From an uncultured Candidatus Saccharibacteria bacterium (GTDB lineage Bacteria > Patescibacteriota > Saccharimonadia > Saccharimonadales > JBBQAJ01): DNA of 64,000 bases. The DNA is taken from the NCBI GenBank assembly GCA_964593805.1, contig CAZQHP010000001.1, forward strand, positions 709,283-773,282. Reading direction: 5' to 3'. The stretch's first letter is position 1. The number at the start of each line of letters is the position of its first letter. The position numbers were made by a program, and so were the translations under genes. Positions 183 through 60,668 of the stretch are shown here, one piece after another. The notes beneath the pieces were generated by a model. That model did not search any database. It was not told the DNA's origin and worked only from the letters and a program-made list of their open reading frames with translations.

Positions 183-1433
183 TCATTTGCGCTCAAGTAT
201 GGATAAACTTTCTATATGCGGGGTACGGGGGAAGAAATTGAAAGCTTCAAAGTGAGTGATTTTGTAATCAGCCTGCAGTTTGGCAATATCTCTTGCCTGA
301 GTAGCGGGATTGCATGACAAATAGATGATTTTTGGCGGCTTGGATTCAATAATTCTATCTGTTATATCACCATGCAAGCCGGCGCGGGGCGGGTCAAAAA
401 TGATTGGCTTGTCCGCTGTAATGTAATCAAGCGTTTTCTCAGATGCAACTTGCGTGACGCTAGCTTTTAGGCCGCTAGCTTCAGCGTTAATCATAGCCAT
501 AGCGGCGGTTGCGGGGTCGCTTTCCACTAAGTCCACGGACTTTTTGGCCAAGCTTAAACCAATGCTGCCGACTCCGGCATACATATCAACCAGTTCGCTT
601 GCACTAGAAAATTCTTTCATGCGCTTGAGTGCAAGCTCAAAAACTGGCACATTCACCTGAAAAAATGAATCAACGTCGTAAATGTAAAGCTTGTCCAACA
701 AGCTGTCTTTTAGCGTCGCGTCGCCGAGTTCATATATCAGCTCCGAGCGCACCGAAGCCGGGCTTTTTGGGTTGGAGTAATAGACTCGTAATCCACGCAA
801 TCCTTCGGGCAATTTGAGTTTGAGGAACGTTTTTGCCTTCACAAACAGCGCCGCAACCGTGCTGCCCGCCTGGTTAGAGCGAACAATAATTGTTTTCAAA
901 TCGCCAGCTCGCACACCTCTGTTATTTAGTTCTTCTAACACGGCTTGGGCCGCTAAATCTATAGCTGGCAAAGCCAAAGCGCTGCCGGCAACAATCTGCT
1001 TTTGATGACTGCCGCGGTTATACAGCGCCAAATGCACGCCAGCGTCGTCTCCCCAAAACGAATACTCCATTTTGTTGCGATATTCAAATTGCTTTTTGTC
1101 CGTTTGCAAGCCAAAATCCGGCAGTCTTATCCCAGCTTGAGTAAAAAGTTCGCTAGTAATTTCTTGCTTCCAATGGTTTTCTGTATCAAAGTTCATAATT
1201 TGCCACGGGGACGTAGCCAGGTAGTTTTGCTCTTTTGGCTCTAACCTATCAGAGCTGGGCTTGATAACCTTTACCGCAGTGCCTTCCGCATAGCTTTTTT
1301 TGCTGCGTTCTAGTTCCACGGAAACCGTTTCCCCCGGCAATGCGTTCCAGACAAATACTTTGCGCCCATCCGCCAGCACTCCCAAACCTTGCCCGCCATG
1401 GACGAGCTTTTCAATCTTTATGATTTCCGGCAT
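183..1433 (-). CDS. SAM-dependent RNA (uracil-5)-methyltransferase, TrmA/RlmD (RumA) family, with TRAM-like N-terminus
   Basis: 416-aa ORF. N-terminal GQGLGV...GETVSVEL TRAM-like segment; DMYAGVGSIGL (SAM motif I), FDPPRAGL and YLSCNPATQARD motifs typical of the family. Confidence 0.8.
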   Translation of the reverse strand: MPEIIKIEKLVHGGQGLGVLADGRKVFVWNALPGETVSVELERSKKSYAEGTAVKVIKPSSDRLEPKEQNYLATSPWQIMNFDTENHWKQEITSELFTQAGIRLPDFGLQTDKKQFEYRNKMEYSFWGDDAGVHLALYNRGSHQKQIVAGSALALPAIDLAAQAVLEELNNRGVRAGDLKTIIVRSNQAGSTVAALFVKAKTFLKLKLPEGLRGLRVYYSNPKSPASVRSELIYELGDATLKDSLLDKLYIYDVDSFFQVNVPVFELALKRMKEFSSASELVDMYAGVGSIGLSLAKKSVDLVESDPATAAMAMINAEASGLKASVTQVASEKTLDYITADKPIIFDPPRAGLHGDITDRIIESKPPKIIYLSCNPATQARDIAKLQADYKITHFEAFNFFPRTPHIESLSILERK

Positions 1434-2339
1434 CTAGCTTTTGTATAGTCCAACAATCAGAATGACTGCGAACGCGGCTTTGGCAAATATCCCAAGCTGC
1501 AAGTAGTTGCGCTCAGTAACTTCATATTTCTGAAAGCCTTTTAGCTGGCGCATCTGATTGCCAATGTAGCCCAAAAAAGCTATAAGGGTTGTGGCATAAA
1601 GAGCATAGACGTACCAGGGACTGCGGACCATCCCAAACAGGGGCGTGCCAACGGCATACACCGCAATCAACAGCCAAGGCAGTACGCCCGTCACTAAGCT
1701 TAAGACATAATTTCCCCATTCAGGTTTTGAAGCGTGAGCGTTTTGTTTTTCTGAAAACCAGCCCAATGCGCAAGTAATCACCATGAAAGCGCCGATTAAT
1801 TTTAGCGTCATTACGTCTTGTACACCGCTAATCAGGGCGATAACTCCGACCATCAGCGCGCTTATAACCGCCATGTCAATCCAGCGCCACAGCATGACTT
1901 TTTTGGCCAGTGCAGTTTCGTACTGTTTGCGGTTGCGGGTTGCGGCCAGCAGCGGCACCACAGCGGAAAGCGCCAGGATCACAACTACTGCCCAGCGAAG
2001 TTCCAGGTCATAAACCGCGTGGACTGCGGGAACAAAAACAGTTCCTGCTTTGCTAGCAAGCTCATCTTTGGTTAAAAGACCTGTAAATAGCTGGTAAGAC
2101 GTGTTGTTCATCAAAAATCCCGCCGCGGCGGCAAGCGCCAGCGCCAGAACACCACTCGCCAAGTTGAGTCGATTAAGTAGTTGCTTGGTAACTGGTTTTT
2201 TTGCGGCCGTTGCTTTCACAACTTTGGTTGATACTGATTTCTTAGTTGCCTTTGCTGATTTAGCCTGAGTTTGTCGGATGGTTTTTTTGGTAGTTTTTTT
2301 CTTTGCCCTAGATTTAGTAGTTGTAGCCATGGATGACAC
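1434..2339 (-). CDS. Heliorhodopsin-like 7-TM protein with Lys/Ala/Thr-rich N-terminal tail
   Basis: 301-aa ORF with seven predicted TM helices after a ~50-aa KKxT/AKKA-rich tail. Blocks WRWIDMAVISALM, GWFSEKQ, GVLPWLLIAVYAVG and a TM7 Lys in GIFAKAAFAV line up (from memory) with RWVEYSLSSSVM, GWLQEK, IVPWIGLLIYV and the Schiff-base Lys in SLVAKSALAW of heliorhodopsin 48C12. Confidence 0.65.
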   Translation of the reverse strand: MSSMATTTKSRAKKKTTKKTIRQTQAKSAKATKKSVSTKVVKATAAKKPVTKQLLNRLNLASGVLALALAAAAGFLMNNTSYQLFTGLLTKDELASKAGTVFVPAVHAVYDLELRWAVVVILALSAVVPLLAATRNRKQYETALAKKVMLWRWIDMAVISALMVGVIALISGVQDVMTLKLIGAFMVITCALGWFSEKQNAHASKPEWGNYVLSLVTGVLPWLLIAVYAVGTPLFGMVRSPWYVYALYATTLIAFLGYIGNQMRQLKGFQKYEVTERNYLQLGIFAKAAFAVILIVGLYKS

Positions 2340-2369
2340 TATACCATATTCGCCAGCTCATCACGGAAG

Positions 2370-2849
2370 TTACAAAGCTTTATAGGGAATATGGCACATC
2401 CCCCGACCGGTGCGCTCGGTAAATTTCTGATGATAATCTTCGGCTTCATAGAAAGGTTCGGCTGGCGTGATTGTGGTAACTATTGGGTTATTGAAGTTCG
2501 TTTGTGTTGCCTTTTTTAACTTTTCGGCAATTGTTTTTTGTTTGTCGTCAAAATAAAAAAGGGCAGACCGATAGCTATCGCCTATATCTGGTCCCTGTCG
2601 ATTAAGCTGAGTTGGGTCATGCATGCGGAAGAATTGTTTCACCAGTGTTTCATAGCTAACTTTTTCAGGGTCAAATTCCAACAACACCACTTCGGCGTGT
2701 CCAGTCGTATGCGTACAAACGTCTTCATAACTGGGATTCTTCGTGTGACCGCCGCTGTAGCCGACTGTGGTTTTGGCAACACCCGGCACTTGATCAAAAT
2801 AAAACTGCACTCCCCAGAAGCAGCCTGCGCCAAACATTGCTTTTTGCAT
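2370..2849 (-). CDS. msrA: Peptide methionine (S)-sulfoxide reductase MsrA
   Basis: 159-aa ORF with the N-terminal GAGCFWGVQ active-site motif and full-length MsrA-like sequence. Confidence 0.9.
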   Translation of the reverse strand: MQKAMFGAGCFWGVQFYFDQVPGVAKTTVGYSGGHTKNPSYEDVCTHTTGHAEVVLLEFDPEKVSYETLVKQFFRMHDPTQLNRQGPDIGDSYRSALFYFDDKQKTIAEKLKKATQTNFNNPIVTTITPAEPFYEAEDYHQKFTERTGRGMCHIPYKAL

Positions 2850-2850: not shown

Positions 2851-4383
2851 TTATTCCTGAAGCTTCAATCTTTTTATAAGCCAATCACGAGGGAGGAGAC
2901 TTAGAAACCAGCCGGCGCGGGGACCGGAGTCTTTGCCGATTAAGGCCTGATACAGGGTGGCGAAGAGTTCTTTTGGCGGCAGATTGCTTGCGTCTTTTAG
3001 GTCGTAGATGGCTTTGTGGAACCATTCACCATCGGCGTCCGCTGGCGCGTTTTCAACCTTTTTTGCCAGCTGGTTTAGGAGTTGCTTTTGCTGGTCACTA
3101 AACCTAGCAGCATCTAGTTGATCCAGGAGGCTGAATTTGACGTCTTCGGGGGCGCGCGTTTGCAGCCACTCATTTATAAAGCTGAGTTCTTTTTTGATTA
3201 TGTTGGCTTCTGCTTTCACTGTTGGTTTGTGTTCAGTACGGCCAATGATTTCAAGCGTTTTTTCGGCGTCTTTTAGCGCCGCTTGATAGCTGGCAACAAG
3301 GTGCGAAAACGGCACCTGGCTGACGCTGCGCGCGTTTTCGCCTCGCGTGCAGATATACCACAATTGCTTTTCGGCTTCTGACTTATCAGCTTTAGCGGCA
3401 AATTCGGCAAATTCATCCATGAGCTTCACCACGCCGTTAATTGGGTCAAAATATAGCCGCTTATCTGGTGCTGAGCGCAATATAAACCAACGCACAACTT
3501 CTGGAGGCATAAGTTTTGCACCCTGCACAGCATCCAGACCGGTGCCTTTGCTGGCGCTCATTTTTTTAGTGTCACCAACCATGTTTATAAAGTCATAAGC
3601 TACTGGATATGGCGGTTCGGCGTCATATACTTCACGTACAATCTGCACACCGGTGTCGTAGCTGCCACCTTTTGTCATATGGTCTCGCCCCGACGGTTCT
3701 ACGGCGACTTTTTGCAACCACCAACGCCCGGGCCAGTCCAAACGCCAGTCCAGTTTCACTTTTCCATCGTTATACGCAATTGACTTCTCTTTGTCATCGG
3801 CACCTTTATATACAAGCGTCTTTTTTGCTGTGTCTAAACTCACAAACGCGCGTTTTTTTAATCGTCCGTCTTCTAAAATCTGTATTGGTGACCAATGCTC
3901 GTCTAGTTCTCGTCCTGAAACCGTTTCCAGCGCATGGCGCGCTTCTGTCACGTGGCTTAAAGCCCGCTCAATTGCAGGTACATACCAGCCATCACGATAT
4001 TTTTCACTGGCTTTTGGATATTCAACTTCTATACCCAATGTCGCGCACGAATCAATCAAACCTTGCAAAAAAAAGTCTCCCATAGAAGTATCAGAACCAT
4101 CAGGAGCGGGTATGTCAGACAGTGGGTAGCCAAGGTATTTTTCGTAATCCGCAGGTAAATTGACTGGAACTTTGCGAAAGCCGTCAAAATCATCCACAAA
4201 CTGTATGTGGCGGGCTCCACGTCCTCGCCGTCTTATCTCCAGCAAAATCGCGTCACAAGTAACAAGTTCGCGCAAATGACCCAAATGATAGGTCCCAGAT
4301 GGCGAGCTGCCAGATTCAATCAAAATTTCGCCATCCGGATGGCGCTCCATAACCTCATCTACGATTTTATTCAGCCACTGCAT
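2851..4383 (-). CDS. lysK: Lysine--tRNA ligase, class I (archaeal/spirochaete type)
   Basis: 510-aa ORF. HIGH-type motif (YHLGHLRE) near the N-terminus and KMSKS-type motif (KMSASKG); length and layout fit class I LysRS, not class II. Confidence 0.85.
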   Translation of the reverse strand: MQWLNKIVDEVMERHPDGEILIESGSSPSGTYHLGHLRELVTCDAILLEIRRRGRGARHIQFVDDFDGFRKVPVNLPADYEKYLGYPLSDIPAPDGSDTSMGDFFLQGLIDSCATLGIEVEYPKASEKYRDGWYVPAIERALSHVTEARHALETVSGRELDEHWSPIQILEDGRLKKRAFVSLDTAKKTLVYKGADDKEKSIAYNDGKVKLDWRLDWPGRWWLQKVAVEPSGRDHMTKGGSYDTGVQIVREVYDAEPPYPVAYDFINMVGDTKKMSASKGTGLDAVQGAKLMPPEVVRWFILRSAPDKRLYFDPINGVVKLMDEFAEFAAKADKSEAEKQLWYICTRGENARSVSQVPFSHLVASYQAALKDAEKTLEIIGRTEHKPTVKAEANIIKKELSFINEWLQTRAPEDVKFSLLDQLDAARFSDQQKQLLNQLAKKVENAPADADGEWFHKAIYDLKDASNLPPKELFATLYQALIGKDSGPRAGWFLSLLPRDWLIKRLKLQE

Positions 4384-4602
4384 GATAGGAAAAGTATACA
4401 GTAAACAGATTACAGTTAACAGAAAGTGCAGTTAGGTTCGCCTGGGTATTGCGCTTGTGTGCCAGGTGCATTTTCTCTGCGAGAAACGGACTGAGCTGTA
4501 CAGTTGGTACTGCTCAGGAGTATCGGAGCAGAAAAATGTGCCTGGTGCCAAGAAGCCCGTAAAGATACGGCTTTACCGGAGCTATGCGGGCTGGTGCAAT
4601 GC

Positions 4603-21157: not shown

Positions 21158-21751
21158 TTATAGCTGGAATGAGGCGGCAATTTCACCAAAAGTGCTATTT
21201 AGTTTATCAAAGTCTGATTCTTTGGCTTGCAAAGCCAAATAGTAGGCTGTGTTTTCATCGCGAAGGAAAATATACAGCGCTTGTCGGGCAAGACTGCCGT
21301 CTTTTCCCTGATATGTGAAATCAATTTCTGCCGCTTGCTTGCCGCTATGCTCAAATGTACGCTCAGACAACTTCTTGTAGCCCGGATAACGGGTTGGGAA
21401 GGCTTTGAAGACATTATCCAGCAGCAACTGTCTGGTGGTGGTTTTAGACAGTTGAGAAGCTATCCGTAGGCCGTCTTCGTACCGAAGGGTTATGCTATAC
21501 GGCGGCTCGGCATCACCGCTGGCGCGGAACAAAAATTTATCTTTTACGTCCTGTGGCGTCAGGTCGAGTACGCTTGCATCGACTGGATAGTTTAGTTTTA
21601 CTCCTTGGCTGGTATTACTAAACTCTTTGAGCGCAACCGTAGTGTTTTGGGCGGCTGAATCTGGCTTTTGGTTCTGATAGATAAGCGTGGCTACGCCTAC
21701 GCTGGCGGCCAGCACCAGCAAGCCCGCGCCAACCAGTAAAGTACGTTTCAT
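21158..21751 (-). CDS. Hypothetical membrane-anchored/secreted protein, translationally coupled to the giant surface protein
   Basis: 197 aa with an N-terminal hydrophobic anchor (LLVGAGLLVLAASVGVATLIY). Its start codon shares a base with the upstream stop (TAATG). Confidence 0.55.
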   Translation of the reverse strand: MKRTLLVGAGLLVLAASVGVATLIYQNQKPDSAAQNTTVALKEFSNTSQGVKLNYPVDASVLDLTPQDVKDKFLFRASGDAEPPYSITLRYEDGLRIASQLSKTTTRQLLLDNVFKAFPTRYPGYKKLSERTFEHSGKQAAEIDFTYQGKDGSLARQALYIFLRDENTAYYLALQAKESDFDKLNSTFGEIAASFQL

Positions 21752-24700
21752 TAGTTATTCGACCTTGCCAGTTCAACCCAGCGATCGGTACTGTAGAGCA
21801 TTGTCAGGGAATCATACTGGCCGCTGGCATAGGCGCCGGCCAGTTCACTTACCGTAGCGGTGTCGGCAAAGTTGACAGCGTTAGCAGAGACATTGATTAT
21901 AACCACCGTGTTGCCGTCCTTCACGCTGGCGGCTTCGCTCATGGTAATGTCACAGCCGTTGGCGTCATTACAGGTAATTGTAACGTACGAAGAGGTCGGT
22001 TCCAGCGTCAACGTAGCGGTAGCGGCCGTACCTTCGTCTGCTATGGTTCGAGCGTCCACGCCAAGGCCCAAGCGATCTTCTATAAACAGGCTGGCGCCTG
22101 AACCAGCTAGCTCTACCCTGCCGTCAGTCGCTGCGTCATAGGCCAGGGTGGCGTTTTGCGCCAGACCCAGTTTTAGACCATTATTGTCTCCGAGGTACAG
22201 GTTGTTAAATTCTGCCGATGTGGAACCTAGGTCAATCGTGCCGGCCGCGTTTGGCAAGATATTGCCGCTGGTTGTGATCCCCACCACCGCGGCAATGGCG
22301 CCTGAGCTATTGACTTGGAACAAGTCGCCGCTGCCCACAGTAAAGAGTGCGGCCGGGGTAGTGTCACCAATACCAACGTTGCCAGCCGACAGTACTACTA
22401 GTTTGGAACTTAAACCAGAGGCTGATTTGGTAGATAGGTGCAGATCACTGTAGTTATTAGTATGGTCTATGATTTTAGTACTGATAGCCGCGGCGGCATT
22501 GTTGGTAGCGTCGTCGCCAAAGTATAGTTCTACCCAGTTATTAACGGTCTGGTCCGTGTTCACCAGCCCCAGTGCTCCGGCCACGTTTTGATACTGCGAA
22601 GTTGAAGAACTTGATACTGCCGAAACTATTTTTGAAAGTCCCAAACTAGCTGTACCAATACCGACGTTGCCGCCGCTAGTTTGCAAAAACAGATTGCCGT
22701 ACGAACCAGCCGTACCGGCTCCTGCGCCTGGAGCTCCGCCTTGCAAAGTTATACTGCCGCCGTTGCCGTTAGTTGAACCAGATGGAGCATCCCCGCCAGC
22801 GCCCGCGGTGAGGTTAAGCACCGCGCCCGTGCCACCCGTTTGACCAGTCGTACCGCTAGTATCACCGCCCTTGCCGCCAGTTACCTGCAGTACTTGAGTG
22901 GCATTCGTGCCGCTTCCAGCTACACTGGCGGGCTGCGTGCCTATTAAATGTAATAGTGCGGTTGGGCTAGTAGTACCAATACCTATAGTGCCGTCTTGTC
23001 TAATAGATACCCGGGTTACAAGTCCGTTGAGCGAGGAACCAGACGACGTACTTGCAGGAGCGGTTTGGAGATTGATACTCCCTCCGTTAGCCGTGCCAGT
23101 TCCTTGCCCACCATTTATAGATGTATTGCCTCCAGTTTGGTTTGCTCCACTGCCATCACCACCCTGAAGTGTGACCGGACCACCGGCCGTACCAAGAAAA
23201 ATTTGGCCAGAGCCACCTTTTACCGTAACGGCACCACCTTGGTTGTTAGCACCATTGCCTCCGGTGATTGTAATTGCACCACCAGGATTAAACTGCAAGC
23301 CCGTGGCAGATGCATTGCCACCAGTTATCGCTATAGCTCCACCGGCCGCGTCGAGGCCATTGGCTCCAATTATACTCAGCTGCGCACCAGCAGTTGTAGC
23401 AGAAGTGCTATTTGCCAATTTTATGGTTCTAGCGGCTTCTTTTGTCAGATATATATCGCCTGTCACCTCCAAAGCAGCACCTGGAGCTGATGTACCTATT
23501 CCCACTCTGTTAAGTGCGGCATCAATGTATAGGGTATTAGTATCAAAACTACTCGTACCCGTTCCGGTAACGGTTAAGTTGCCGGCTATTGAAGACGCGC
23601 CCGTTCCCTGAACTGTTAAATTACCTGTCAGAGTTGCATTGCCAGATGTATCTATAGTTAATTTGGTTATACCAGCAGTCTCAAGCTCTAGGCTTCTTGA
23701 ATCATTAGACCCTATCGTTACTGTTGCGCCAAATGTGTTGCCATTTTGGAAGATTGCAGCACCTGCACCGGTTGTTTTACAGTAAACTAGTTGATTAGTG
23801 GTGTTATTTTGACATAAGTATATTGATGCATTTGACCCCGCTAATGTGCTAGGCAATACAATACCGCCGTTGCCAGCCTGTAGCGTTATAGAACTATCTC
23901 CGTTAGGATTACCAATCAACAGCGTAGCTTTTCCAGTTCCAGCTGCCAAACCAGCGCCTATTAGTATAGTTTGAGTATTGCTGTCGGCTATATTACCACT
24001 ACCAATGTTTATAGTATTGCTTATTACCGATTGCCCCAGAGTTATTGTGCCTACTTGACTTGTACCACCGATGGCTATGCCACCAGAAGTATGAGTCTGC
24101 AGCCGTATAGCCTCGCTCCCAGCCGTGTTAGAGGTACCTCCTTGAATCAAAGTAGTGTGATTAGCCGCCCCGATTGAACCAATCGTAACACCGACTGTCC
24201 CGGTTATACCTCCTCCTGTACCAATGGAAATAGTATTACTAGCGGCCGCCCCAGGCACACCTGTCCCAATATTTATAGTCTTGCCACCTGCCACAGTAGT
24301 ATTGCCTGTGCCAATATTGACCGTATCTACCACAGCAGAGTTGCCCCCAGCTATTGTAGTAGTCCTGGCGGCGGCTGGGGCAATGTTGCCTAGGTTGATA
24401 GTCGACACGCGAGTGTTGTTACCTAGGTTTATAGTACTAGCACCGGCCGTGCCAACCCCTGACAGGATATTTACGGTTGTGGCGGCTCCTGTGGTGCCGT
24501 TGCCAATGTTTATGGTTTGGGCACCGGTTGTGGCGTTCGCGCTGCCAATGTTGATGCTATGAGCGGCAGTTGACTGCCCGACTGTTATGGTGCCCGTACC
24601 TGTCGCGTGACCTATCGTAATCCCGCTCGATGATACTGATGTACCGATATTTATAGCGCCATTAGCCCCGCCACCTCCGGTAGTGCCAGCCTGGAGACTA

Positions 24701-27333
24701 ACAGATCCGCCGTTTCCGATAGTGGCATTTCCTCCAGTCAAAGTAACCGACCCGGCCGTTCCATTCGTGGCACCTCCTCCCGTCAATGTGACCGATCCTG
24801 CGGCGCCGCTGGTCGAGCCGCCCGAGCCGGCTGTAATTGATATAGCCCCCCCAGTACCATCAGTCGCACCGCCGCCAGCAAGCAGTGTAATATCTCCACC
24901 TGACGCACAACCGCCAAAACAAAATGCATTATCTGCTTGAATCAAAATGTCAGTGCCTACGCCCCCTGTAGTTGTTATGCTTGCGACTTGATCAAGAGCG
25001 GTACCAACAAATACCAATGACCTGGTGCTTAATGTTGATGATCCTCCATTGACTCCAGCCATACCTGTGACAGTACTGCTAGTAAACAACGCACCTGCGC
25101 TACTTATGGTTAGAACAGACGTCCCACCGTTTAGCCCTTGGAGTAAATATCCACCAAGCTCATTTTGCAGTATTAGTGTAGGTTGGCCTTCATTTGATGA
25201 GGCGTATAGGGTGCCGTTTGAGGCCACGCCGTTGTATTGCGTATTGACGGGGGCGCTTAGTGTAGATACGTAAACTTGCGGGTCGGTACCATACACAGTT
25301 TGAGCGCCCCATGCAGCCACTGTGGTACCGTTGTTCGGTAGAATAATTGTCGGTTTAACAGCTGTAAGCGCTCCTGATATATTCTGGGTTACAGACAGTC
25401 TCTGCCATGTGGTCGTGGCGGTAAATGAAGCCGCCGTGCCAGTGGCAGGTGTACCACCTGTACTATCAATCCGTAAACTAACTGGGGCAGTACCGCTGTT
25501 AGTTTTCAGCCACACGCTAAATGTATAGTTTCCAGTTATAGATGCCAAGAACGACTGATACAGACCGGCATTGGCCGCATTAGATACCAGTTTATCAGCT
25601 GTTTGTGTGCCGTTCGGTGCGGGATTGGAGGCTGGATCATCCGCTGTTACAGACATATTAGCTGGGGATATAATAGTTGGAAGCCAAAAATCTGTATTTG
25701 AAAACACCTCGCTGCTAAAAAGCCGATTACTGAATTTACCTATACCTCCGCTGGCGTTGTTGATATATCCAATGGATTCTTGATTGCCGCCAGCACTAAT
25801 ATTTAATAAATTCGCTCCGGCTGAATTCCTGAGCTGAAACAAATCGGCTGTTTGCGACGAGGCTCCTTGTATAATTGCCCCTATACTTGCCGATGAAGCA
25901 CTTTGGATATTAAAATTGGCGTTTGACTGAGTTGTTGTACCATTCTGAATATACCCAGTGCCACCGGTAGATGGTGCGTAGCCGCTACATACTGAGCCCG
26001 TGCTACACAAAGTACCCGTTTCATTTGGCAGAGTTAATGTGTTCGTAGAAGGGCTGGTGGGACCTATAAGCGTCAAGGTATTGGCAGACCCGCTGCCTTT
26101 GAACAGTATTGAACCTGTGTTTGTATTGGCGGTGCCAAGCGTTAGTGAATTAGCGCCTTGGATTGCTAATGTTCCTGTGAAATTAGCCGCCGAAGAGATA
26201 GTCTGGGAGTTGTAGGTTCCGGCGGTAACATTGCCGGTACCGCCAACTGCCAACCTATCTGTGCCTCCGCTCTGAAGCTGTAATAGGTTGCCGCCGCCCG
26301 TATCGTTTAGAAATATGCTAGCATCGGCCGTATTATCAGTTTGTGCGGAACCTGGTGCTAACAGTACAGCTTGGCCGCCGCCAGCCGCACAGGTTACGCC
26401 TGTGGTACAAATCGTTTGAGCCGCGCCCCCGCTAGTTGGGAAAATAAATGACCGGCCGCCGGCAGTGAATGTTAGCACGTCACCTCCGGCATCAATGGAT
26501 AGGTTGTTGCCGGAGCCTGTTTGCTTCAAACTGTTGCCTAGAATAACACCAGTCGCAGGTAGGGAAAGGTTTCCAAATTGCACGCTTGCGGTAGTATTGA
26601 TATTTTGTGGCGCTGAAAGGGTTAGGACTCCACCGGCGCTGTTAACATTTATTTGGTTCGCCGTACCTTGAATAGTTACGTCGTCACTAAATCCGTTGAC
26701 TGTTGTAGATGTTGGGTTAACTATTTGCCCTAGCTTCGTCTGCAACAACTCGCTAGTTACAAAATTACAGTTATTACTGTCCAGGCAGATTGTACCGCTG
26801 GCGTTTGGCAGCGTAAAAGTTTGATTTGCATTAGCGGCTTGAGTGCGAAAAAGGGTGGTAAAATTGCCGTCGGAGAACTTTAAATCTCCCCGCGTGACTA
26901 CATCGCCGTTCACTAGCAGGGATCTGTTGCTACCTTGTAGCTCTGATGGCAGCGTAGTTATTGCGGCATCTTTGAGCGTTACGTCTTGAATGCTGACCGA
27001 GGTCTGTTTGGCCTTCGTTGAGTTTTGTTCTTTTCTTAGCACAAACAAAATACTAACCCCTGTCAGCAGTACCACGGCCACGGTCACGCCAATTGACACG
27101 GCCATGGCTTTATGGCGCGAAAACGCTAGCAAAGAAGTAGCCGGCCTAGACGGGGCCTTGGGCGCATAAGCTATATCACTCTGCTCATGAATTTCCAGAT
27201 CTTCGGTCGCGTAATTATTTTCGGTCGAACTATAACCAACCACCGGCGCTGATGCGCCACTAGAAAGCCCATTGCCTGAAATAGGCAAATTAGGCTGGGT
27301 AGGGTCTTCAGCTTTAAGCTGATGGTCGTCCAT
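21751..27333 (-). CDS. Giant (1860 aa) membrane-anchored surface protein, beta-helix/tail-fibre-like putative adhesin
   Basis: ~75-aa cytoplasmic N-terminus and a single TM (AMAVSIGVTVAVVLLTGVSILFVL). The rest is G/T/A/S/N-rich with degenerate GG-x-hydrophobic repeats. Four copies of a [VI]GIG[TD]xxP/L..AL motif and a C-terminal DLGSTSAEFNNLYLG segment recall phage tail-fibre proteins. Confidence 0.6.
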   Translation of the reverse strand: MDDHQLKAEDPTQPNLPISGNGLSSGASAPVVGYSSTENNYATEDLEIHEQSDIAYAPKAPSRPATSLLAFSRHKAMAVSIGVTVAVVLLTGVSILFVLRKEQNSTKAKQTSVSIQDVTLKDAAITTLPSELQGSNRSLLVNGDVVTRGDLKFSDGNFTTLFRTQAANANQTFTLPNASGTICLDSNNCNFVTSELLQTKLGQIVNPTSTTVNGFSDDVTIQGTANQINVNSAGGVLTLSAPQNINTTASVQFGNLSLPATGVILGNSLKQTGSGNNLSIDAGGDVLTFTAGGRSFIFPTSGGAAQTICTTGVTCAAGGGQAVLLAPGSAQTDNTADASIFLNDTGGGNLLQLQSGGTDRLAVGGTGNVTAGTYNSQTISSAANFTGTLAIQGANSLTLGTANTNTGSILFKGSGSANTLTLIGPTSPSTNTLTLPNETGTLCSTGSVCSGYAPSTGGTGYIQNGTTTQSNANFNIQSASSASIGAIIQGASSQTADLFQLRNSAGANLLNISAGGNQESIGYINNASGGIGKFSNRLFSSEVFSNTDFWLPTIISPANMSVTADDPASNPAPNGTQTADKLVSNAANAGLYQSFLASITGNYTFSVWLKTNSGTAPVSLRIDSTGGTPATGTAASFTATTTWQRLSVTQNISGALTAVKPTIILPNNGTTVAAWGAQTVYGTDPQVYVSTLSAPVNTQYNGVASNGTLYASSNEGQPTLILQNELGGYLLQGLNGGTSVLTISSAGALFTSSTVTGMAGVNGGSSTLSTRSLVFVGTALDQVASITTTGGVGTDILIQADNAFCFGGCASGGDITLLAGGGATDGTGGAISITAGSGGSTSGAAGSVTLTGGGATNGTAGSVTLTGGNATIGNGGSVSLQAGTTGGGGANGAINIGTSVSSSGITIGHATGTGTITVGQSTAAHSINIGSANATTGAQTINIGNGTTGAATTVNILSGVGTAGASTINLGNNTRVSTINLGNIAPAAARTTTIAGGNSAVVDTVNIGTGNTTVAGGKTINIGTGVPGAAASNTISIGTGGGITGTVGVTIGSIGAANHTTLIQGGTSNTAGSEAIRLQTHTSGGIAIGGTSQVGTITLGQSVISNTINIGSGNIADSNTQTILIGAGLAAGTGKATLLIGNPNGDSSITLQAGNGGIVLPSTLAGSNASIYLCQNNTTNQLVYCKTTGAGAAIFQNGNTFGATVTIGSNDSRSLELETAGITKLTIDTSGNATLTGNLTVQGTGASSIAGNLTVTGTGTSSFDTNTLYIDAALNRVGIGTSAPGAALEVTGDIYLTKEAARTIKLANSTSATTAGAQLSIIGANGLDAAGGAIAITGGNASATGLQFNPGGAITITGGNGANNQGGAVTVKGGSGQIFLGTAGGPVTLQGGDGSGANQTGGNTSINGGQGTGTANGGSINLQTAPASTSSGSSLNGLVTRVSIRQDGTIGIGTTSPTALLHLIGTQPASVAGSGTNATQVLQVTGGKGGDTSGTTGQTGGTGAVLNLTAGAGGDAPSGSTNGNGGSITLQGGAPGAGAGTAGSYGNLFLQTSGGNVGIGTASLGLSKIVSAVSSSSTSQYQNVAGALGLVNTDQTVNNWVELYFGDDATNNAAAAISTKIIDHTNNYSDLHLSTKSASGLSSKLVVLSAGNVGIGDTTPAALFTVGSGDLFQVNSSGAIAAVVGITTSGNILPNAAGTIDLGSTSAEFNNLYLGDNNGLKLGLAQNATLAYDAATDGRVELAGSGASLFIEDRLGLGVDARTIADEGTAATATLTLEPTSSYVTITCNDANGCDITMSEAASVKDGNTVVIINVSANAVNFADTATVSELAGAYASGQYDSLTMLYSTDRWVELARSNN

Positions 27334-53431: not shown

Positions 53432-53437
53432 TATAAT

Positions 53438-53549
53438 TTGGCACCGTGCTATTTTCCCAGGGTTAAAACCCAAGTATTGTAACCGCTGCGAGGCTTAACT
53501 GCTGTGTTCGGCATGGGAACAGGTGTTTCCCTCGCGCCATGGGCACCAA
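53438..53549 (-). rRNA. rrf: 5S ribosomal RNA
   Basis: The reverse complement contains CCUGUUCCCAUGCCGAACACAGCAGUUAAGC, and the termini pair (UUUGGUGCC / GGUGCCAAA). Confidence 0.9.
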
Positions 53550-53804
53550 ACGCGAACTTCGTTCGCGTAATTATCAATTTTCAATTCACAAATTTCAATG
53601 AAATGACAATTAACAATGCACCAAACAAAGGTCAGGCTCAATGTCCATGCGGTAGTATATCATTTATGGTATAAGGCTTAAACAGCTTCATATCATATTT
53701 GGTATACTGCACGAATTTTGAAATATTAAGGCTAACGGGTGGTTAGAACCACCAATAACTAGTCAATGCACTTACTCAGAGAAGGCTCATGCCTTGTCTG
53801 AGTT

Positions 53805-56922
<3,118 letters not shown>

Positions 56923-57250
56923 ACGATATTGTGCATCGACTAGTTATTGGTAATACCAATACCTGTGCCATGTCGAATGACATGGTGCCGTTTGCCTTAT
57001 CGAAGGTCATATACGTTCCATTACGTACACAACCTATCTCAAAATTTGAATCTAATTGTTAAGTTACAAAACCCAAGAACATCCCACAAATACTGAATGA
57101 TTTACCCTGAGAGCTTGAGTTTACGCTGAAAGCCTGCAGGCGATTCCTTACAACTTCTTGCCTAAACTCAAGCAGTTGCAATATCTTATCACTAATAACA
57201 GGGGCGGTCAAGCATATTCTGATGTCAAACTTGCTACGTTTTATAGACTG

Positions 57251-58252
57251 TTAGCGCGGAGGTATTCCTTGCTTTTGCAATCGCTCGTCAGCTTCATTGC
57301 TGAGCCTAGTAATGATCTGTCCTGTCAGTAGATAGTTGAGCGGGTCCTGGTCTTCAGGAGGCTTACCATACTCAAACATTATATGCATGCAACGATTTAT
57401 GGCTTCGGCTGTATGACCATGGCTACGGTGGTTAAGCGGATTAAGTGCCGCTTCTCCTTGGACAGCAGCTTGTCTGTTGAGTAGCGCGGTCACTTGATTA
57501 CCCATCTCAACTATGACGGCATGCAGAGGCACGTCCCTTTTTGGTATTTTCGCCAGAAGCGCTTCCAACACAGATGCATTTCTCCAACCAGACTCTGAAG
57601 CTTCTTTGATAATGTTTGAAAAATTGTCGAATACGCGTCGTCTCAAACTAATTGGGTCCGAATACGGTAAACCAGGCAAAACCTCTTCTACAGGCTCTGT
57701 TTGAAGCTGTTCCACAACATCTGAAAGTATAGATGGGTCCTTTCCTGCTATTTTTGGTCCCATCACATAAGAATTAAATGCCAGTCGACTACTTTCGTCT
57801 CCCGCAGTCTTGGCAAATACCTCTTGCCAGAAACTTTCAGAACTTTGCCCCAGATCATCAACTGCAATGTGTTTATTAGCATCGCCTGCCTGCACCCTCC
57901 AGCTCAGTCGAGACATAACCCTGAGTGACATCAGCCACTGTAAATAACCCGAGGGATATTTCGCAATCCCCCATTTATCAACAGTAATTTGCTCACGCAA
58001 ACCTCTCCCATAGTCAACCAGAGCCTGTTTAGCAGCTTCTAGTTCTTCTACAGATCGCTCTTCTATCAATGCTCTGAAATTTTGGTCAACTGTTGTTGTG
58101 AAAAGTTCCCGTGGCTGATCACGTCTCCCAACACCCCAGGTTACATTATTTTCTGTGACTTGGTGCGCATACTCAACAGCCGACGTGCCTTCTGCCAGTT
58201 CTATAGGCGCCGTAGGGTTTGGTCCGGTTTGTAGTGTTTCTTTTGTAGGCAC
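57251..58252 (-). CDS. Hypothetical cytoplasmic protein (333 aa), downstream partner of the S8 protease
   Basis: Intact ORF with no signal peptide and no recognisable motif. It lies between the protease gene and 23S rRNA. Confidence 0.5.
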   Translation of the reverse strand: MPTKETLQTGPNPTAPIELAEGTSAVEYAHQVTENNVTWGVGRRDQPRELFTTTVDQNFRALIEERSVEELEAAKQALVDYGRGLREQITVDKWGIAKYPSGYLQWLMSLRVMSRLSWRVQAGDANKHIAVDDLGQSSESFWQEVFAKTAGDESSRLAFNSYVMGPKIAGKDPSILSDVVEQLQTEPVEEVLPGLPYSDPISLRRRVFDNFSNIIKEASESGWRNASVLEALLAKIPKRDVPLHAVIVEMGNQVTALLNRQAAVQGEAALNPLNHRSHGHTAEAINRCMHIMFEYGKPPEDQDPLNYLLTGQIITRLSNEADERLQKQGIPPR

Positions 58253-58304
58253 AGTATATGTATTATACTACAATCATCATTAAATAGCAAGCTCCCGGTA
58301 ATGT

Positions 58305-60047
58305 TTATTTTGTAGTCAGTGTAACTGAATTAGATGCAGCTGACTTGTTGTTACTGGCGTCAACAGCCTGAACATAGTAGGTATATCTAGTTCTGCGAGC
58401 AACGGATGTATCGGTGAAAGTCAGGTTAGTTGTCTTGGCGTAAAGCACGCCGTTTCGGTAAATCCAGTATTCTTTTACAGCAACGTTATCTTTGCTAGCT
58501 GTCCAGGTAAGTTTTGGCTTGCCGTTCTGCAGCTTGCCAGTCAGCACAGACGCAGTTGGAGCGGTAGTATCAGCAGGAAGTATTAGTGTGCCTAGTGCAC
58601 GATTTAGGTTTGGTAACGGACCTATATTTCCGGTCAATGTTCCAGCACTGGTGTTTTGCAGAGTTCCAGTCTGAATTAGTGTGCTACGTATCTGTGCAGG
58701 AGTTAGTACTTTGCCTGGGTTGAGTGTTTCGTAAGCAGAGCTTAGAGAAGCGATGGCTGAGGCCACAATTGGAGCAGCCGAACTTGTGCCATTAAAGTTT
58801 GAAGTATATGCACCATTTGGTGTAGTACTTGCTTCTAATGCGCCATAACCAGTTGTTGTTACACATTCTCCATGGCCCTGTAGTTCAACACGTGAACCGT
58901 AATTGCTAAAGTACAAGCGCGAATGAAGCGGCGCGCTACAAGCCGAACCCGCGCCGGCAATAACGGCACCCGAATTTACTTTGCCACTCGGGAAAGTCGT
59001 ACCCCACACCGTTGTGTCATCTAGATTATGACCGCTGTTGGCAGCCGCTTCTACAACATTTATACCGCTGTTTGTCAGCGCTTTAATAGCGTCATATATG
59101 GCTGGCTCCCACTCAACTGGCGCAAATCCGCCCACACTGGCGGGCGCCCAAGTTTGCTGCTCAATTAGAATTACATCACCAGGTACTGCTTTTGTAGCGG
59201 CAACCTGCAATGCGCCGACTATATCCCAACCGCGCTCTGAATTATAGGTATTAACTCTACTGAGTTTAACGCCAGTAGTAGCTCCAGTTACTCCGTAAGT
59301 ATTATCTGTTGCTACCATTTCGCCTAGAACGGCAGTACCGTGGTTTGTGTCATTAAACGGATCAACTGGCGTACCGTTTTTTACCATGGTATACACTGCT
59401 TTGGATAAGTCTTCGTGAGCGGCGTTCCAGCTGTATTCCAGATCAATTATACGCACAGCCGAGCCGGTGCCGCCTGGGAATGTTTTGGCAAAAGTTGCGC
59501 CAATTCCTTCTGGGCTAGGGTTTAGGTACTTCTGCAGGCTGGTGTAGTTGTTTGCCGTCGGTGCGGGCGCGGGCTTTGACTCTGGGTACACGGTTTCCAC
59601 GCTGTCCAACAAAGCAATCTGACCCACCAGAGCTTGAATATTATCTTTGGGAGTAACTTTGACTACAAAGTAGTTGTCTAGCTCGCTTGCCAGTTTAGTG
59701 CTGGCTTCTGTAGCTAGTTCGCTACCTGGACGAACTAGTTTTTCCAGCTTTTGCTTGCCCGCGTCTGCCAGTACTTTATTTATACTGTTAGCTTTGTTGC
59801 TAGTTTTGGTACTTTTAGCTTTGAAGTTGCTAGTCTGATCCAGCTCCATCTCTGCTGAATCTTTAAGCTTAAAAATAAGACTGTCGTTACGGTATTTCTG
59901 AGCGTTTGAATAGTCGTTGTTTGGGTTTGAGCCAGCGTCTACGACGCTGCCCAGACCAAACAGACTAGGTACAACTAAAAGCGCTGCCAGAAACAGAGAC
60001 AAAACAGATACAGTAACCTTGCCAAAACGATTTGCACGTAACTTCAA
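58305..60047 (-). CDS. Secreted subtilisin-like serine protease (S8 family) with C-terminal fibronectin-III-like domain
   Basis: N-terminal signal/anchor (VSVLSLFLAALLVVPSLFGL). Catalytic Asp (VRIIDLEYSW), His (NHGTAVLGEM) and Ser (NGTSSAAPIVAS) in D-H-S order. The C-terminal LTWTASKDNVAVKEYWIYRNG...YYVQAVDASNN segment is FN3-like. Confidence 0.8.
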   Translation of the reverse strand: MKLRANRFGKVTVSVLSLFLAALLVVPSLFGLGSVVDAGSNPNNDYSNAQKYRNDSLIFKLKDSAEMELDQTSNFKAKSTKTSNKANSINKVLADAGKQKLEKLVRPGSELATEASTKLASELDNYFVVKVTPKDNIQALVGQIALLDSVETVYPESKPAPAPTANNYTSLQKYLNPSPEGIGATFAKTFPGGTGSAVRIIDLEYSWNAAHEDLSKAVYTMVKNGTPVDPFNDTNHGTAVLGEMVATDNTYGVTGATTGVKLSRVNTYNSERGWDIVGALQVAATKAVPGDVILIEQQTWAPASVGGFAPVEWEPAIYDAIKALTNSGINVVEAAANSGHNLDDTTVWGTTFPSGKVNSGAVIAGAGSACSAPLHSRLYFSNYGSRVELQGHGECVTTTGYGALEASTTPNGAYTSNFNGTSSAAPIVASAIASLSSAYETLNPGKVLTPAQIRSTLIQTGTLQNTSAGTLTGNIGPLPNLNRALGTLILPADTTAPTASVLTGKLQNGKPKLTWTASKDNVAVKEYWIYRNGVLYAKTTNLTFTDTSVARRTRYTYYVQAVDASNNKSAASNSVTLTTK

Positions 60048-60073
60048 AACAAATACCTTACCTTAATGCAATC

Positions 60074-60102
60074 ATTATATCACCAATATCAATAATTGTC
60101 AA
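60074..60102 (-). promoter_or_regulatory. Perfect consensus sigma-70-type promoter for the S8 protease gene
   Basis: Minus strand TTGACA (60097-60102), a 17-nt spacer, then TATAAT (60074-60079), about 27 nt upstream of the ATG. Confidence 0.6.
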
Positions 60103-60135
60103 CCGCTTGTGCTTGAATTCTGTTGTTGTCACTTA

Positions 60136-60161: not shown

Positions 60162-60168
60162 CACTTTA

Positions 60169-60613: not shown

Positions 60614-60668
60614 TCGCAAAAGACCAGCGTATTGTACCGGAAACTCCCCTGTTAAACAACTGTAGTTG

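Follow-up and report, generated by a model that had tools for sequence, protein, structure and literature searches.

Near one end of the window, i.e. the stretch of 64,000 nucleotides from an uncultured Candidatus Saccharibacteria bacterium that was analysed here, a gene of the heliorhodopsin family lies on the minus strand between msrA and the gene for an RNA methyltransferase. Its product carries a strongly basic tail ahead of a membrane domain of seven transmembrane helices. The features of this locus are the following:

183..1433, minus strand: TRAM-domain RNA (uracil-5)-methyltransferase, RlmD/TrmA-like (PF05958, PF01938)
1434..2330, minus strand: heliorhodopsin-family coding sequence, 298 amino acids plus stop (Pfam PF18761, E=3.6e-35)
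1437..2183, minus strand: seven-transmembrane heliorhodopsin domain, residues 50-298 (AlphaFold2 model, Foldseek)
1479..1481, minus strand: codon of Lys284, equivalent to the Schiff-base Lys241 of 48C12 (phmmer and MAFFT alignments)
1875..1877, minus strand: codon of Asp152 at the counterion position, equivalent to Glu107 of 48C12 (phmmer and MAFFT alignments)
2184..2330, minus strand: polycationic disordered N-terminal tail, residues 1-49 (composition, pLDDT, family conservation)
2330..2328, minus strand: true start codon, ATG (public gene calls and homologues)
2338..2346, minus strand: predicted extended -10 element TGgTATAGT (sequence and cross-locus comparison)
2370..2849, minus strand: msrA, peptide methionine-S-sulfoxide reductase, 159 amino acids (PF01625, E=1.9e-63)
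2851..4383, minus strand: class I lysyl-tRNA synthetase, given for context as a member of the conserved upstream housekeeping block (PF01921, E=8.2e-91)

An earlier note on this DNA had started the protein at a GTG codon at position 2339, which gives 301 amino acids. The open reading frame 1434..2339 does exist on the minus strand, but the actual start lies at 2330, an ATG that all public gene calls and all homologues use (MATTTK..., 298 amino acids). The homologous N-termini all read MAT(T)K, the identical 298-residue product is annotated in public assemblies, and the GTG, 9 nucleotides upstream of the ATG, overlaps a conserved -10 box.

That this is a heliorhodopsin, as the note had proposed from a comparison by eye, is borne out by both profile and structure. 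The Pfam heliorhodopsin model scores 121.9 bits (gathering cut-off 26.7), with a match that extends over residues 55-296 of the 301-residue frame and over profile positions 1-239 of 242, and a phmmer search of the PDB finds 48C12 (6su3) at E=2.5e-16. In the AlphaFold2 model (mean pLDDT 80.5), the seven transmembrane helices are reproduced together with the long extracellular AB beta-hairpin of the heliorhodopsin domain (residues 78-110, with strands 78-88 and 99-110). This model superposes best on TaHeR (6is6; TM 0.90, rmsd 1.9 Å) and 48C12 (TM 0.86); ten heliorhodopsin chains are matched by Foldseek at E=1e-12 to 9e-10 and TM 0.84-0.90, whereas type-1 rhodopsins appear only at E=2e-4 or worse and TM 0.74 or less. 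Counted on the helix boundaries of the model, 24 Lys and Arg residues lie on the N-terminal tail and the three intracellular loops versus 4 on the three extracellular loops and the C-terminus, and even without the tail the ratio is 8 inside to 4 outside. The positive-inside rule thus predicts a cytoplasmic N-terminus, which agrees with the orientation assumed earlier. No second heliorhodopsin was detected with the heliorhodopsin profile in a six-frame translation of the window. We regard it as virtually certain that the product belongs to the heliorhodopsin family and that its polycationic tail is real and cytoplasmic.

An important question is whether this protein still has what is needed to hold retinal. 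Lys284 pairs with Lys241 of 48C12 in the phmmer alignment as well as in three made with MAFFT, so that the Lys noted in the seventh helix does sit at the retinal position. When the residues listed by Kovalev 2020 (PMC7049168) are mapped, R104, W105, E149, E230, Y226, Y92, D127, W173, S76, M115 and F206 of 48C12 are unchanged, and the cluster on the cytoplasmic face (R149/E194/E273/Y269 of the protein studied here) is invariant. The substitutions are H23A, H80P, N101M, Y108M, S111I, S237G and E107D. The last of these is the Asp152 in the RWID motif that had been pointed out before, a conservative replacement of Glu, and this Asp is compatible with the fold because the structure of the corresponding TaHeR variant E108D, which is among the best Foldseek matches (7clj), has been solved. 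The two His residues suspected of being lost are indeed replaced, by Ala63 (H23) and Pro126 (H80), while Met146, Met153 and Ile156 occupy the positions of N101, Y108 and S111. The motif of the seventh helix reads GIFAK instead of SxxxK, with Gly280 in place of S237, a position that is N, S, G or D across the subfamily. As judged from these alignments, the polar Schiff-base cavity lined by His, Asn and Tyr is now hydrophobic (Ala, Pro, Met), and with A, P, M, M and I at the five positions H23, H80, N101, Y108 and S111, the water-filled cavity is probably gone. Since the Ser of SxxxK is missing along with Asn101, Tyr108 and the pair of His residues, the photochemistry may have changed or disappeared.

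The same position is variable among relatives. The Schiff-base Lys is missing in 66 of 244 of them (approximately 27%), mostly by exchange to Arg. On a neighbour-joining tree, the most parsimonious history of the Lys state needs about 24 changes; this is a rough count of independent losses, from a tree built with capped distances. Between orthologues that have undergone the Lys-to-Arg exchange, dN/dS is 0.09-0.12, and many Lys-less orthologues keep the tail. Loss of the Lys in about a quarter of the members under purifying selection argues for a function that in part does not depend on light. In one of these Lys-to-Arg clades the charge cluster has been rewired (RWADK...DILAR), which suggests a putative stabilised apo form. 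No description of Lys-less heliorhodopsins was found in the literature searched.

One reading of these data is that the subfamily has turned into a structural or tethering, opsin-like scaffold that works in the membrane without chromophore; the Lys retained here would be a leftover of its ancestry, and no functional pigment would be made. The repeated losses under selection and the rewired clade speak for this reading, as do the missing polar residues of the cavity (H23, H80, N101, Y108, S111, S237) and the rank of the Lys241 column, which is only 51st in conservation among the 237 columns of the domain. It is also in line with the retinal supply: as already remarked for the window, no retinal-biosynthesis genes are seen, i.e. 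no crt- or blh-type families were found among the 24 open reading frames scanned with Pfam, and Saccharibacteria lack blh (PMC9296517). Yet 73% of the members retain the Lys although identity within the family has fallen to 30-50%, and 77% of the Lys-bearing members have an acidic counterion. Moreover, the position of S111 is Thr or Ser in 69% of the Lys-bearing but in only about 15% of the Lys-less members, and those of W173, S76 and Q213 are likewise better conserved where the Lys is present, as expected if retinal is bound. This relaxation of the pocket in Lys-less members fits the idea that those which retain the Lys are still pigments. Nor would missing biosynthesis preclude a pigment, since the type-1 rhodopsins of Saccharibacteria take up external retinal and heliorhodopsins bind it quickly (PMC9296517), so that the scavenging of chromophore postulated earlier fits published work. 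A pure scaffold without pigment seems distinctly unlikely for this protein, which probably would form a retinal pigment.

The tail is the second unusual property. Its residues 1-49, a low-complexity sequence of mainly Lys, Thr, Ala and Ser, contain 17 Lys or Arg and no Asp or Glu; with the amino acid frequencies of the window proteome, the chance probabilities are approximately 7e-6 for the count of basic residues and 2e-3 for the lack of acidic ones. Among about 70 open reading frames of the window, no other has so strongly basic a segment free of acidic residues, and no comparable acid-free, Lys/Thr-rich N-terminal tail was found on other proteins in the window and in 24 related GTDB loci (approximately 260 kb). 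Residues 2-44 are predicted to be disordered (AlphaFold pLDDT below 50). The basic stretch described before is thus real and coding.

It is also not confined to this gene. Whether other heliorhodopsins have such a tail had been left as a question, and among 138 complete relatives (representatives at 50% identity) 88, i.e. 64%, have one of at least 35 residues, with a median of 62.5 and a range of 36-130 residues; where the same locus holds a canonical heliorhodopsin, the N-terminus is only 16-20 residues long. All 24 of 24 species-level loci belong to Saccharibacteria. The tail thus defines a large subfamily in the Saccharimonadales and is a lineage-wide property rather than a one-off fusion, and the gene studied here is a member of this Saccharimonadales-specific, vertically inherited heliorhodopsin subfamily. 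Family tails consist of 28.6% Lys plus Arg (24% Lys, 4% Arg) and 2.7% Asp plus Glu, have a net charge of +16 and are essentially free of aromatic or large hydrophobic residues. Lys exceeds Arg by about 6:1, versus 1.3:1 in this proteome, at 48% GC. Lys residues are preferentially spaced 3-5 residues apart, and the tripeptides KPA, KKP and AAK are 2-5-fold enriched over shuffled sequences.

The tail had been called histone-H1-like. As a compositional analogy, which includes the spacing of the Lys residues, this description holds; homology was not detected, as Pfam searches with eight tails at E up to 10 gave no significant family and the tail of the protein itself matches nothing. The best match, to HC2 by a single relative, remains below threshold (E=0.034, with 14.7 bits where the cut-off is 40). 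Run against 5.8 billion proteins, a profile of 46 tail residues gave no match at E up to 10, the heliorhodopsin family itself included, and such a search with the tail only is uninformative because the sequence is of low complexity. A scan of metagenome contigs with DNA patterns for the N-terminal motif, which had been tuned on the loci and had a sensitivity of 2-8 of 24, recovered seven true tailed heliorhodopsins, many spurious 15-residue open reading frames and MAT..KAKTKT starts on GroES, PDH E1-alpha, a hemerythrin-like protein and a CoA-transferase. These starts were rejected as a shared tag, since the pattern itself forces the motif and at least some of the matches look like other phyla.

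Residues 1-18 of the tail form a conserved motif, MATT(T)K..KAK.K(T)TKK, but synonymous-site conservation is raised over the first approximately 20 codons, where pS is lowered, and the fraction of identical codons is 0.67 in the first approximately 22 codons versus 0.34 in the transmembrane domain. The conservation of the first approximately 18 residues is therefore confounded by constraint on the nucleotides. Just upstream, the putative extended -10 element TGgTATAGT ends 7 nucleotides before the ATG, and an equivalent element is found 6-8 nucleotides from the ATG in approximately 25 related loci with heliorhodopsins of both types, i.e. tailed and canonical. A generic scan for sigma-70 -35/-10 promoters did not call it. 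The short distance predicts a leaderless heliorhodopsin mRNA, and the gene thus appears to have its own conserved, leaderless-type promoter.

This arrangement raises the possibility that the tail is a by-product of, or a helper in, expression and membrane insertion, with A-rich codons keeping a leaderless 5' end unstructured and the positive charge locking the N-terminus inside. The conserved position of the -10 element, the codon-level conservation, the frequency of leaderless-type starts in this genome and a charge distribution that follows the positive-inside rule would all be accommodated. However, the nucleotide constraint covers only about 20 codons of tails that are 36-130 residues long, and beyond codon 20, in the body of the tail, pN is lower than pS and the composition remains conserved, with its preference for Lys over Arg and its ordered Lys spacing. 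Furthermore, canonical heliorhodopsins at this locus manage with their short N-termini under the same promoter and topology, and other apparently leaderless genes of the window have no such tail. We consider a mere role in expression or insertion quite improbable.

What the tail could bind is a separate matter. A disordered, polybasic segment predicted to lie in the cytoplasm beside the first transmembrane helix might associate with anionic membrane lipids, spread along the inner leaflet and clustering phosphatidylglycerol (PG) or cardiolipin, or with one specific acidic protein rather than with nucleic acid, and such a partner could recognise the conserved 18 residues as a short linear motif. 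Polybasic lipid anchors are, however, usually accompanied by aromatic or large hydrophobic residues, which these tails essentially lack, the conservation of the motif is in part nucleotide-level, and the product of the adjacent msrA gene is not notably acidic. Binding to lipid or to a single acidic partner instead of nucleic acid seems quite improbable; binding of nucleic acid is itself rather unlikely, if less so.

The position of msrA next to the heliorhodopsin gene had been taken as a sign of a module for light or oxidative stress. The adjacency is genuine: msrA directly precedes the heliorhodopsin gene on the minus strand, with its stop codon 39 nucleotides before the heliorhodopsin start and no terminator-like site found in this gap, while downstream the start codon of the methyltransferase gene, a conserved neighbour, abuts the heliorhodopsin stop. 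In comparisons of 32 loci, all of which carry a heliorhodopsin, msrA is directly adjacent in 22 (17 of 25 loci plus 5 of 7 independently anchored ones) and one gene away in another (1 of the 7); at the loci anchored on the methyltransferase gene in other Saccharimonadales genomes, a heliorhodopsin is present in 7 of 7. The adjacency occurs in two orientations, with two lineages of MsrA and with both heliorhodopsin types: a co-directional lineage of approximately 70-80% identity and a divergent one of approximately 41-47% identity, whose start codon lies about 30 nucleotides from that of the heliorhodopsin and which is found in at least eight loci.

Since the whole region is syntenic, this adjacency could have been inherited without functional coupling, with the partner of the heliorhodopsin, if any, encoded elsewhere. 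The gene lies within a long conserved housekeeping block, in which a CPBP protease, ProRS, GreA and LysRS precede and the RNA methyltransferase, RsmE, a PD-(D/E)XK nuclease, SerRS, HPF and SecA follow the heliorhodopsin. With vertically inherited synteny over such a distance, adjacency by itself argues only weakly for a module, and with its own predicted promoter just after msrA, the heliorhodopsin gene would not require co-transcription. MsrA is also absent from approximately 30% of the loci, it is not among the ten recurrent classes of heliorhodopsin neighbours (PMC11109279), and no paper on MsrA together with heliorhodopsin was found in the literature searched. Its charge is unremarkable (pI 4.8-6.3 versus a window median of 6.3), and electrostatic pairing between tail and MsrA is therefore not supported. 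On the other hand, the junction between msrA and heliorhodopsin is steadier than those around it: LysRS and MsrA are directly joined in only about 5 of 32 loci, and genes for an ABC transporter, DUF427, TrmB and HAD proteins come and go around the pair. Its persistence across MsrA lineages, orientations and heliorhodopsin types, and the precedent of heliorhodopsins that regulate the products of adjacent genes, also argue for more than shared descent. Thus, the conserved adjacency stands, whereas the module built on it is weakened by the predicted separate promoter and the synteny block. Inherited synteny without coupling falls just short of an even chance in our estimate, and a functional link between heliorhodopsin and MsrA, which gene order may hint at, is slightly more tentative still.

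Overall, the best explanation, to which we give about even weight, would be a retinal photosensor or scaffold with a polyanion-tethering tail and a possible tie to MsrA. The protein would bind scavenged all-trans retinal and act as a slow, non-pumping photosensor or scaffold, like those heliorhodopsins whose regulation of soluble partners has been characterised. The output would pass through the cytoplasmic face, i.e. the R149/E194/E273/Y269 cluster and the polycationic tail. The tail would most likely keep an acidic partner or a polyanion, be it RNA or the DNA of the nucleoid, at the membrane; the conserved neighbourhood of msrA would point to a role in the control of photo-oxidative damage. 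Light would be a modulator in the Lys-retaining members, including this one. As many orthologues without the Lys are under selection and have the tail, the scaffold or tether role is probably the core function. A more far-reaching version, in which the heliorhodopsin fold of environmental Saccharimonadales has become a core housekeeping protein, mainly chromophore-independent, that is anchored in the membrane of an ultrasmall cell as a histone-like polycationic tether for nucleoid or RNA, with retinal and light as an optional gate in Lys-retaining members and with a coupling to MsrA to deal with photo-oxidative damage at the membrane, appears improbable, but if true, the natural Lys-to-Arg variants would be a ready-made ‘dark’ control series for heliorhodopsin function.

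To our knowledge, the function of heliorhodopsins is largely open, with only a few cases of partner regulation and one viral channel known. In genomes of approximately 0.8-1 Mb from which most accessory functions have gone, this subfamily keeps a fixed place between genes for tRNA synthetases and translation factors, which argues for an important role. It offers a candidate signalling output in the polycationic tail and a candidate partner in MsrA, and its dozens of selected Lys-less variants let light-dependent and light-independent functions be separated.

With the canonical 48C12 and TaHeR (6su3, 6is6), the protein shares the seven-helix fold, the long AB beta-hairpin, the N-in topology, the Lys in the seventh helix and the residue set R104/W105/E149/E230/Y226/Y92/D127/W173. 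It differs from them in an identity of only approximately 24%, in the Asp counterion and the Gly at S237, in the absence of the surface cluster Q26/S242/W246 and in having a 49-residue polycationic tail where 48C12 has about nine residues. The SxxxK motif, used as a criterion in Bulzu 2021 (PMC8612252) and Chiriac 2022 (PMC9166423), reads GxxxK here and is likewise lacking in many relatives, and surveys that demand it miss a large share of the heliorhodopsin-fold proteins in CPR genomes. A cytoplasmic N-terminal addition is also present in Znf-HeR, MORN-HeR and the uncharacterised ‘ntv’ variants (Bulzu et al. 2021, PMC8612252), and such additions have been proposed to be the signalling output. 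They are folded domains (zinc ribbon, MORN repeats) in Thermoplasmatales and Firmicutes, in contrast to the disordered Lys/Thr/Ala/Ser tail in Saccharimonadales, which is thereby set apart from them and may correspond to one of ntv2-10.

In the host lineage, SacR type-1 pumps (Jaffe 2022, PMC9296517) and 80 heliorhodopsins of Saccharimonadia (Chiriac 2022, PMC9166423) have been described, and they share with our case the host, the lack of retinal biosynthesis, presumed scavenging and a suggested mitigation of oxidative stress. The published Saccharimonadia motifs SLVAK, SLIAK and SFVAK are of the canonical type (PMC9166423, PMC9296517); the supplementary files of PMC9166423 that were searched contain no occurrences of TM7 motifs. 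The tail, the pairing with MsrA, the synteny and the losses of the Lys are not mentioned in either paper.

Known pairs of heliorhodopsin and partner consist of a non-pumping heliorhodopsin encoded beside an enzyme, soluble or in the membrane, that is tied to light or stress, with direct contact proposed at the cytoplasmic face. One such regulatory pair is that of a heliorhodopsin with glutamine synthetase. TfHeR regulates the adjacently encoded photolyase (PMC9769723), and OcHeR does the same for the OmrDE ABC transporter (PMC11109279). Here, the neighbour is MsrA, the heliorhodopsin has its own predicted promoter, and the pair is a candidate.

Basic tails of the H1 type occur in the C-terminal domain of histone H1, in chlamydial Hc2, in the C-terminal tail of mycobacterial HupB/MDP1 and in the KPAA repeats of AlgP. 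The subfamily tails resemble them in disorder, absence of acidic residues, preference for Lys over Arg, a Lys every 3-5 residues and the KKP, KPA and AAK tripeptides. The tail studied here differs in being rich in Thr and Ser instead of Ala and Pro and in its location on a seven-helix membrane protein, and shows no detectable homology.

Rhodopsin folds that have lost the Schiff-base Lys while their genes remained intact are found in type-1 ‘Rh-noK’ and fungal opsin-related proteins. Rh-noK proteins are mentioned in PMC7714340 and PMC10308929. In contrast to these, the losses in the present subfamily lie inside the heliorhodopsin family, have occurred repeatedly at one syntenic locus and are mostly exchanges of Lys to Arg.

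The minus-strand reading frame that the earlier note had taken for a heliorhodopsin gene is present at 1434..2339, and its product matches the heliorhodopsin profile PF18761 nearly end to end (E=3.6e-35, 121.9 bits against a cut-off of 26.7) and, at E=1e-13 to 1e-16, the heliorhodopsins of known structure 48C12 and TaHeR. The proposed GTG start at 2339 has to be given up, as it lies inside a conserved -10 box and the ATG at 2330 is used by every homologue and in every public gene call; the resulting protein has 298 aa and begins MATTTK. AlphaFold2, run with 30 relatives, gives a model (mean pLDDT 80.5) with seven transmembrane helices and the long TM1–TM2 beta-hairpin typical of heliorhodopsins, and Foldseek places it next to TaHeR (TM 0.90, rmsd 1.9 Å) and 48C12 (TM 0.86), with type-1 rhodopsins far behind. 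In alignments, K284 (GIFAK) pairs with the Schiff-base lysine K241 of 48C12, D152 (RWID) occupies the position of the counterion E107, and Ala63 and Pro126 replace H23 and H80, all of which the earlier note had read correctly.

When the residues listed as conserved by Kovalev et al. 2020 (PMC7049168) are projected onto the protein and 244 relatives, the protein retains the R104/W105/E149/E230/Y226/Y92 cluster facing the cytoplasm, the dimer residue D127 and the pocket residues W173, S76, M115 and F206 (48C12 numbering). Unlike in 48C12, however, the lining of its Schiff-base cavity is hydrophobic rather than polar (H23A, H80P, N101M, Y108M, S111I), and the SxxxK criterion of published surveys overlooks it because S237 is Gly. 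The crystal structure of TaHeR E108D (7clj) ranks among the best structural matches, and thus an Asp counterion fits the fold; even so, one would expect photochemistry unlike that of 48C12. As for the source of retinal, a Pfam scan of 24 window ORFs brought up no enzyme of carotenoid or retinal biosynthesis, in line with the earlier reading, and a second heliorhodopsin was not found within the 64-kb window. In rhodopsin-bearing Saccharibacteria no blh has been found, and their rhodopsins rapidly take up external retinal (PMC9296517).

The Schiff-base lysine is substituted in 66 of the 244 relatives, mostly by Arg but also by Gln, Val, Thr, Leu and others; it ranks 51st in conservation among 237 columns (query and 244 relatives), and a rough neighbour-joining tree requires about 24 changes at this position under parsimony, with Lys at the root. 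It is missing from seven of 25 syntenic species-level loci and, in other Saccharimonadales, from three of the six canonical-type heliorhodopsins that occupy this locus. Canonical-type genes at this locus in L121, L123 and L127 (at ~3400–4400) carry Gln, Gln and Gly, respectively, and that of L123 has its own, independently gained basic N-extension of 53 aa. Lys-less genes are not pseudogenes, since dN/dS is 0.09–0.12 between K-to-R orthologues and a saturated pair shows pN 0.18 versus pS 0.75. In one Lys-less clade the charge cluster is rewired (RWADK...DILAR), and Lys-less members retain their tails. Selection on these orthologues points to a scaffold or tether role as the core function, which light would modulate. 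A rival reading goes further and takes the protein as a scaffold wholly independent of a chromophore; yet some pocket positions are looser in Lys-less members, the S111 equivalent being T/S in 69% of Lys-bearing but only ~15% of Lys-less sequences, and this difference suggests that Lys-bearing members, the query among them, still use retinal.

The N-terminal tail is as basic as the earlier note had claimed: residues 1–49 contain 17 K/R and no D/E (P ~7e-6 and 2e-3, respectively, at window proteome frequencies), form the strongest acid-free basic segment of the 64-kb window and are predicted to be disordered (pLDDT <50 at residues 2–44). Rather than a one-off fusion, it is a trait of the family: almost all of the 120 closest homologues bear such a tail of 40–85 aa, opening with the recognizable motif MATT(T)KKSTKAKTKTTKKP. 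When 1.84 billion 50%-identity representatives were searched exhaustively with HMMER, 755 proteins matched with E up to 1e-3, and of the 138 complete sequences within the best 150 of these, 88 (64%) carry a tail of 35 aa or more (median 62.5 aa, 36–130 aa; K+R 28.6%, D+E 2.7%, median net charge +16). Tail residues are K (24%), T (19%), A (16%), S (10%), V (8%), R (4%) and P (4%), and AT bias does not account for the lysines, because K:R is ~6 as against 1.3 in the window proteome at 48% GC. Lysines are preferentially spaced by 3–5 residues, and KPA, KKP, KPV and AAK occur 2–5 fold above shuffled tails. In Lys preference, spacing and 3-mers the tails are alike in style to H1 and HupB-type basic tails; ‘histone-H1-like’ is therefore apt for style and composition but not for homology, as a Pfam scan of eight tails found no significant family and a tail-only profile search gave zero matches. 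On metagenome contigs (L046, L040, L027, L104, L060), unrelated proteins (GroES, PDH E1-alpha, a hemerythrin-like protein, a CoA-transferase and a 299-aa protein Lys-rich throughout) start with a very similar basic MAT..K(A/T)KAKTKT; most likely these are chance matches imposed by the pattern used in the search, though they might point to a more general use of basic extensions at the N-terminus.

To judge from a frame kept open in all relatives although lengths vary, and from pN < pS in the tail body of five pairs, the tail is certainly translated. Beyond the N-terminal motif only its composition is conserved. Conservation of the motif is partly a nucleotide-level effect, since identical amino acids have identical codons at a frequency of 0.67 in the first ~22 codons versus 0.34 in the TM domain, and pS is lowered in the N-terminal codons. 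Directly upstream lies the following element:

2346..2338, minus strand: extended -10 element TGgTATAGT, ending 7 nt before the heliorhodopsin ATG

It recurs at equal distance in ~25 related loci, canonical-type ones included, so that the mRNA is predicted to be leaderless and under a promoter of its own. That the tail serves leaderless expression or topology only is a rival reading, with the nucleotide-level signal in the first codons on one side and the pN < pS of the tail body on the other. At many other gene starts of the window (e.g. 4383, 9874, 43082, 48397, 50349, 50796) a TAnnnT box ends 6–8 nt ahead of the start codon and a Shine-Dalgarno sequence is missing; leaderless mRNAs seem to be a frequent feature of this genome. 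In the ~60 nt upstream of the heliorhodopsin start, six loci with a divergent msrA (L003, L001, L004, L007, L012, L016) have the two start codons only ~30 nt apart and back-to-back -10-like boxes; here neither gene would have a leader, and one overlapping bidirectional promoter would serve both.

In the window, whose contig has 776,748 bp, and in the related loci (24 of 24 GTDB loci are from Saccharibacteria/Saccharimonadales MAGs), the gene sits in a conserved housekeeping block:

Upstream side: CPBP protease, ProRS, GreA, LysRS, a variable stretch (ABC transporter, DUF427, others), MsrA
Downstream side: (HAD), TRAM methyltransferase, RsmE, PD-(D/E)XK nuclease, SerRS, HPF, SecA

The neighbour at 2370..2849 (minus) is indeed MsrA (PF01625, E=1.9e-63), and of 25 loci, 17 have MsrA beside heliorhodopsin, partly as a co-directional gene with 67–80% identity to that of the window, partly as a distinct, divergent MsrA (41–47% identity) with its start codon ~30 nt from the heliorhodopsin ATG. 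Seven further genomes, anchored on the downstream methyltransferase and selected on sequence length only, all have heliorhodopsin at the locus (canonical and untailed in six), with MsrA as its immediate neighbour in five and separated from it by one gene in another. The MsrA/heliorhodopsin junction is the most stable one within the otherwise variable stretch, which favours functional coupling; the block, however, is vertically inherited and every sampled genome has heliorhodopsin, and synteny alone is the rival explanation for the adjacency. A 100-aa DUF427 gene (PF04248, NTP_transf_9) recurs just upstream of msrA (L121–L124, L127, L005, L007–L009, L012, L014, L016, L018). After GreA, the window (2851–4383) and some Saccharimonadales have a class I LysRS (PF01921), and L007, L009, L010, L012, L013, L015, L021 and L022 have, by eye, a ~505–516 aa protein resembling class II LysRS, if correct an in-place swap of synthetase class.

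In L014 (5018–6801) two heliorhodopsin genes stand in tandem, the first 48C12-like with H23, H80, E107, S237, K241 and a short N-terminus, the second tailed with K241 replaced by Arg; they may form a heterodimer, or may record the duplication from which the tailed subfamily arose. With the canonical type at the locus in other genomes and both types in this tandem, the tailed form is probably a diverged duplicate that took the place of the canonical copy in some lineages.

Elsewhere in the window, a 1860-aa ORF without Pfam match is directly followed by a PsbP-like protein (PF18933, E=2.6e-6; together 21158–27333, minus), an unusual family for a non-photosynthetic CPR bacterium, and the rRNA operon (53436–64000, minus) is interrupted by protein-coding DNA:

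63355–64000, minus: 16S, 3' part, cut by the window end
60986–63110, plus: several small ORFs, within ~2.7 kb after 16S
60537–60613, minus: tRNA-Ile
60347–60423, minus: tRNA-Ala
58305–60047, minus: S8 subtilase, 580 aa
57251–58252, minus: 333-aa ORF, no Pfam match
53805–56923, minus: 23S, 3119 nt versus a 2925-position model
53436–53550, minus: 5S

Overall, fold, residues, tail properties, conservation patterns and synteny are established by the analysis, whereas pigment formation, the ligand of the tail and the MsrA link are inferred. The best reading is that of a retinal-scavenging, non-pumping heliorhodopsin acting as photosensor or scaffold. Its output would run via the cytoplasmic face, i.e. 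the invariant R/E/E/Y cluster and the polycationic tail, which would anchor either a polyanion, with nucleic acid the most plausible, or an acidic partner; binding of lipid or of one specific protein is the rival to such a tether. MsrA would link this role to photo-oxidative repair.

Saccharimonadia heliorhodopsins and a suggested role in oxidative stress have already been published (PMC9166423, PMC8612252). In the searchable literature we found neither a polycationic tail as subfamily hallmark, nor loss of the polar Schiff-base cavity, frequent and selected loss of the Schiff-base lysine, a fixed position in a housekeeping block beside MsrA or any mention of MsrA and heliorhodopsin together, and PMC11109279 does not list MsrA in its ten classes of recurrent heliorhodopsin neighbours. 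The tail may be one of the ten N-terminal extension variants of Bulzu et al. (PMC8612252), most of which are given without description. In two loci without msrA (L011:319–1065, L015:4944–5690), a divergent SPFH/Band-7 (stomatin/flotillin-like) gene, recognized by eye, lies directly upstream of the tailed heliorhodopsin, an arrangement reminiscent of the flotillin-associated rhodopsins described among proteorhodopsin paralogues (PMC10308929).
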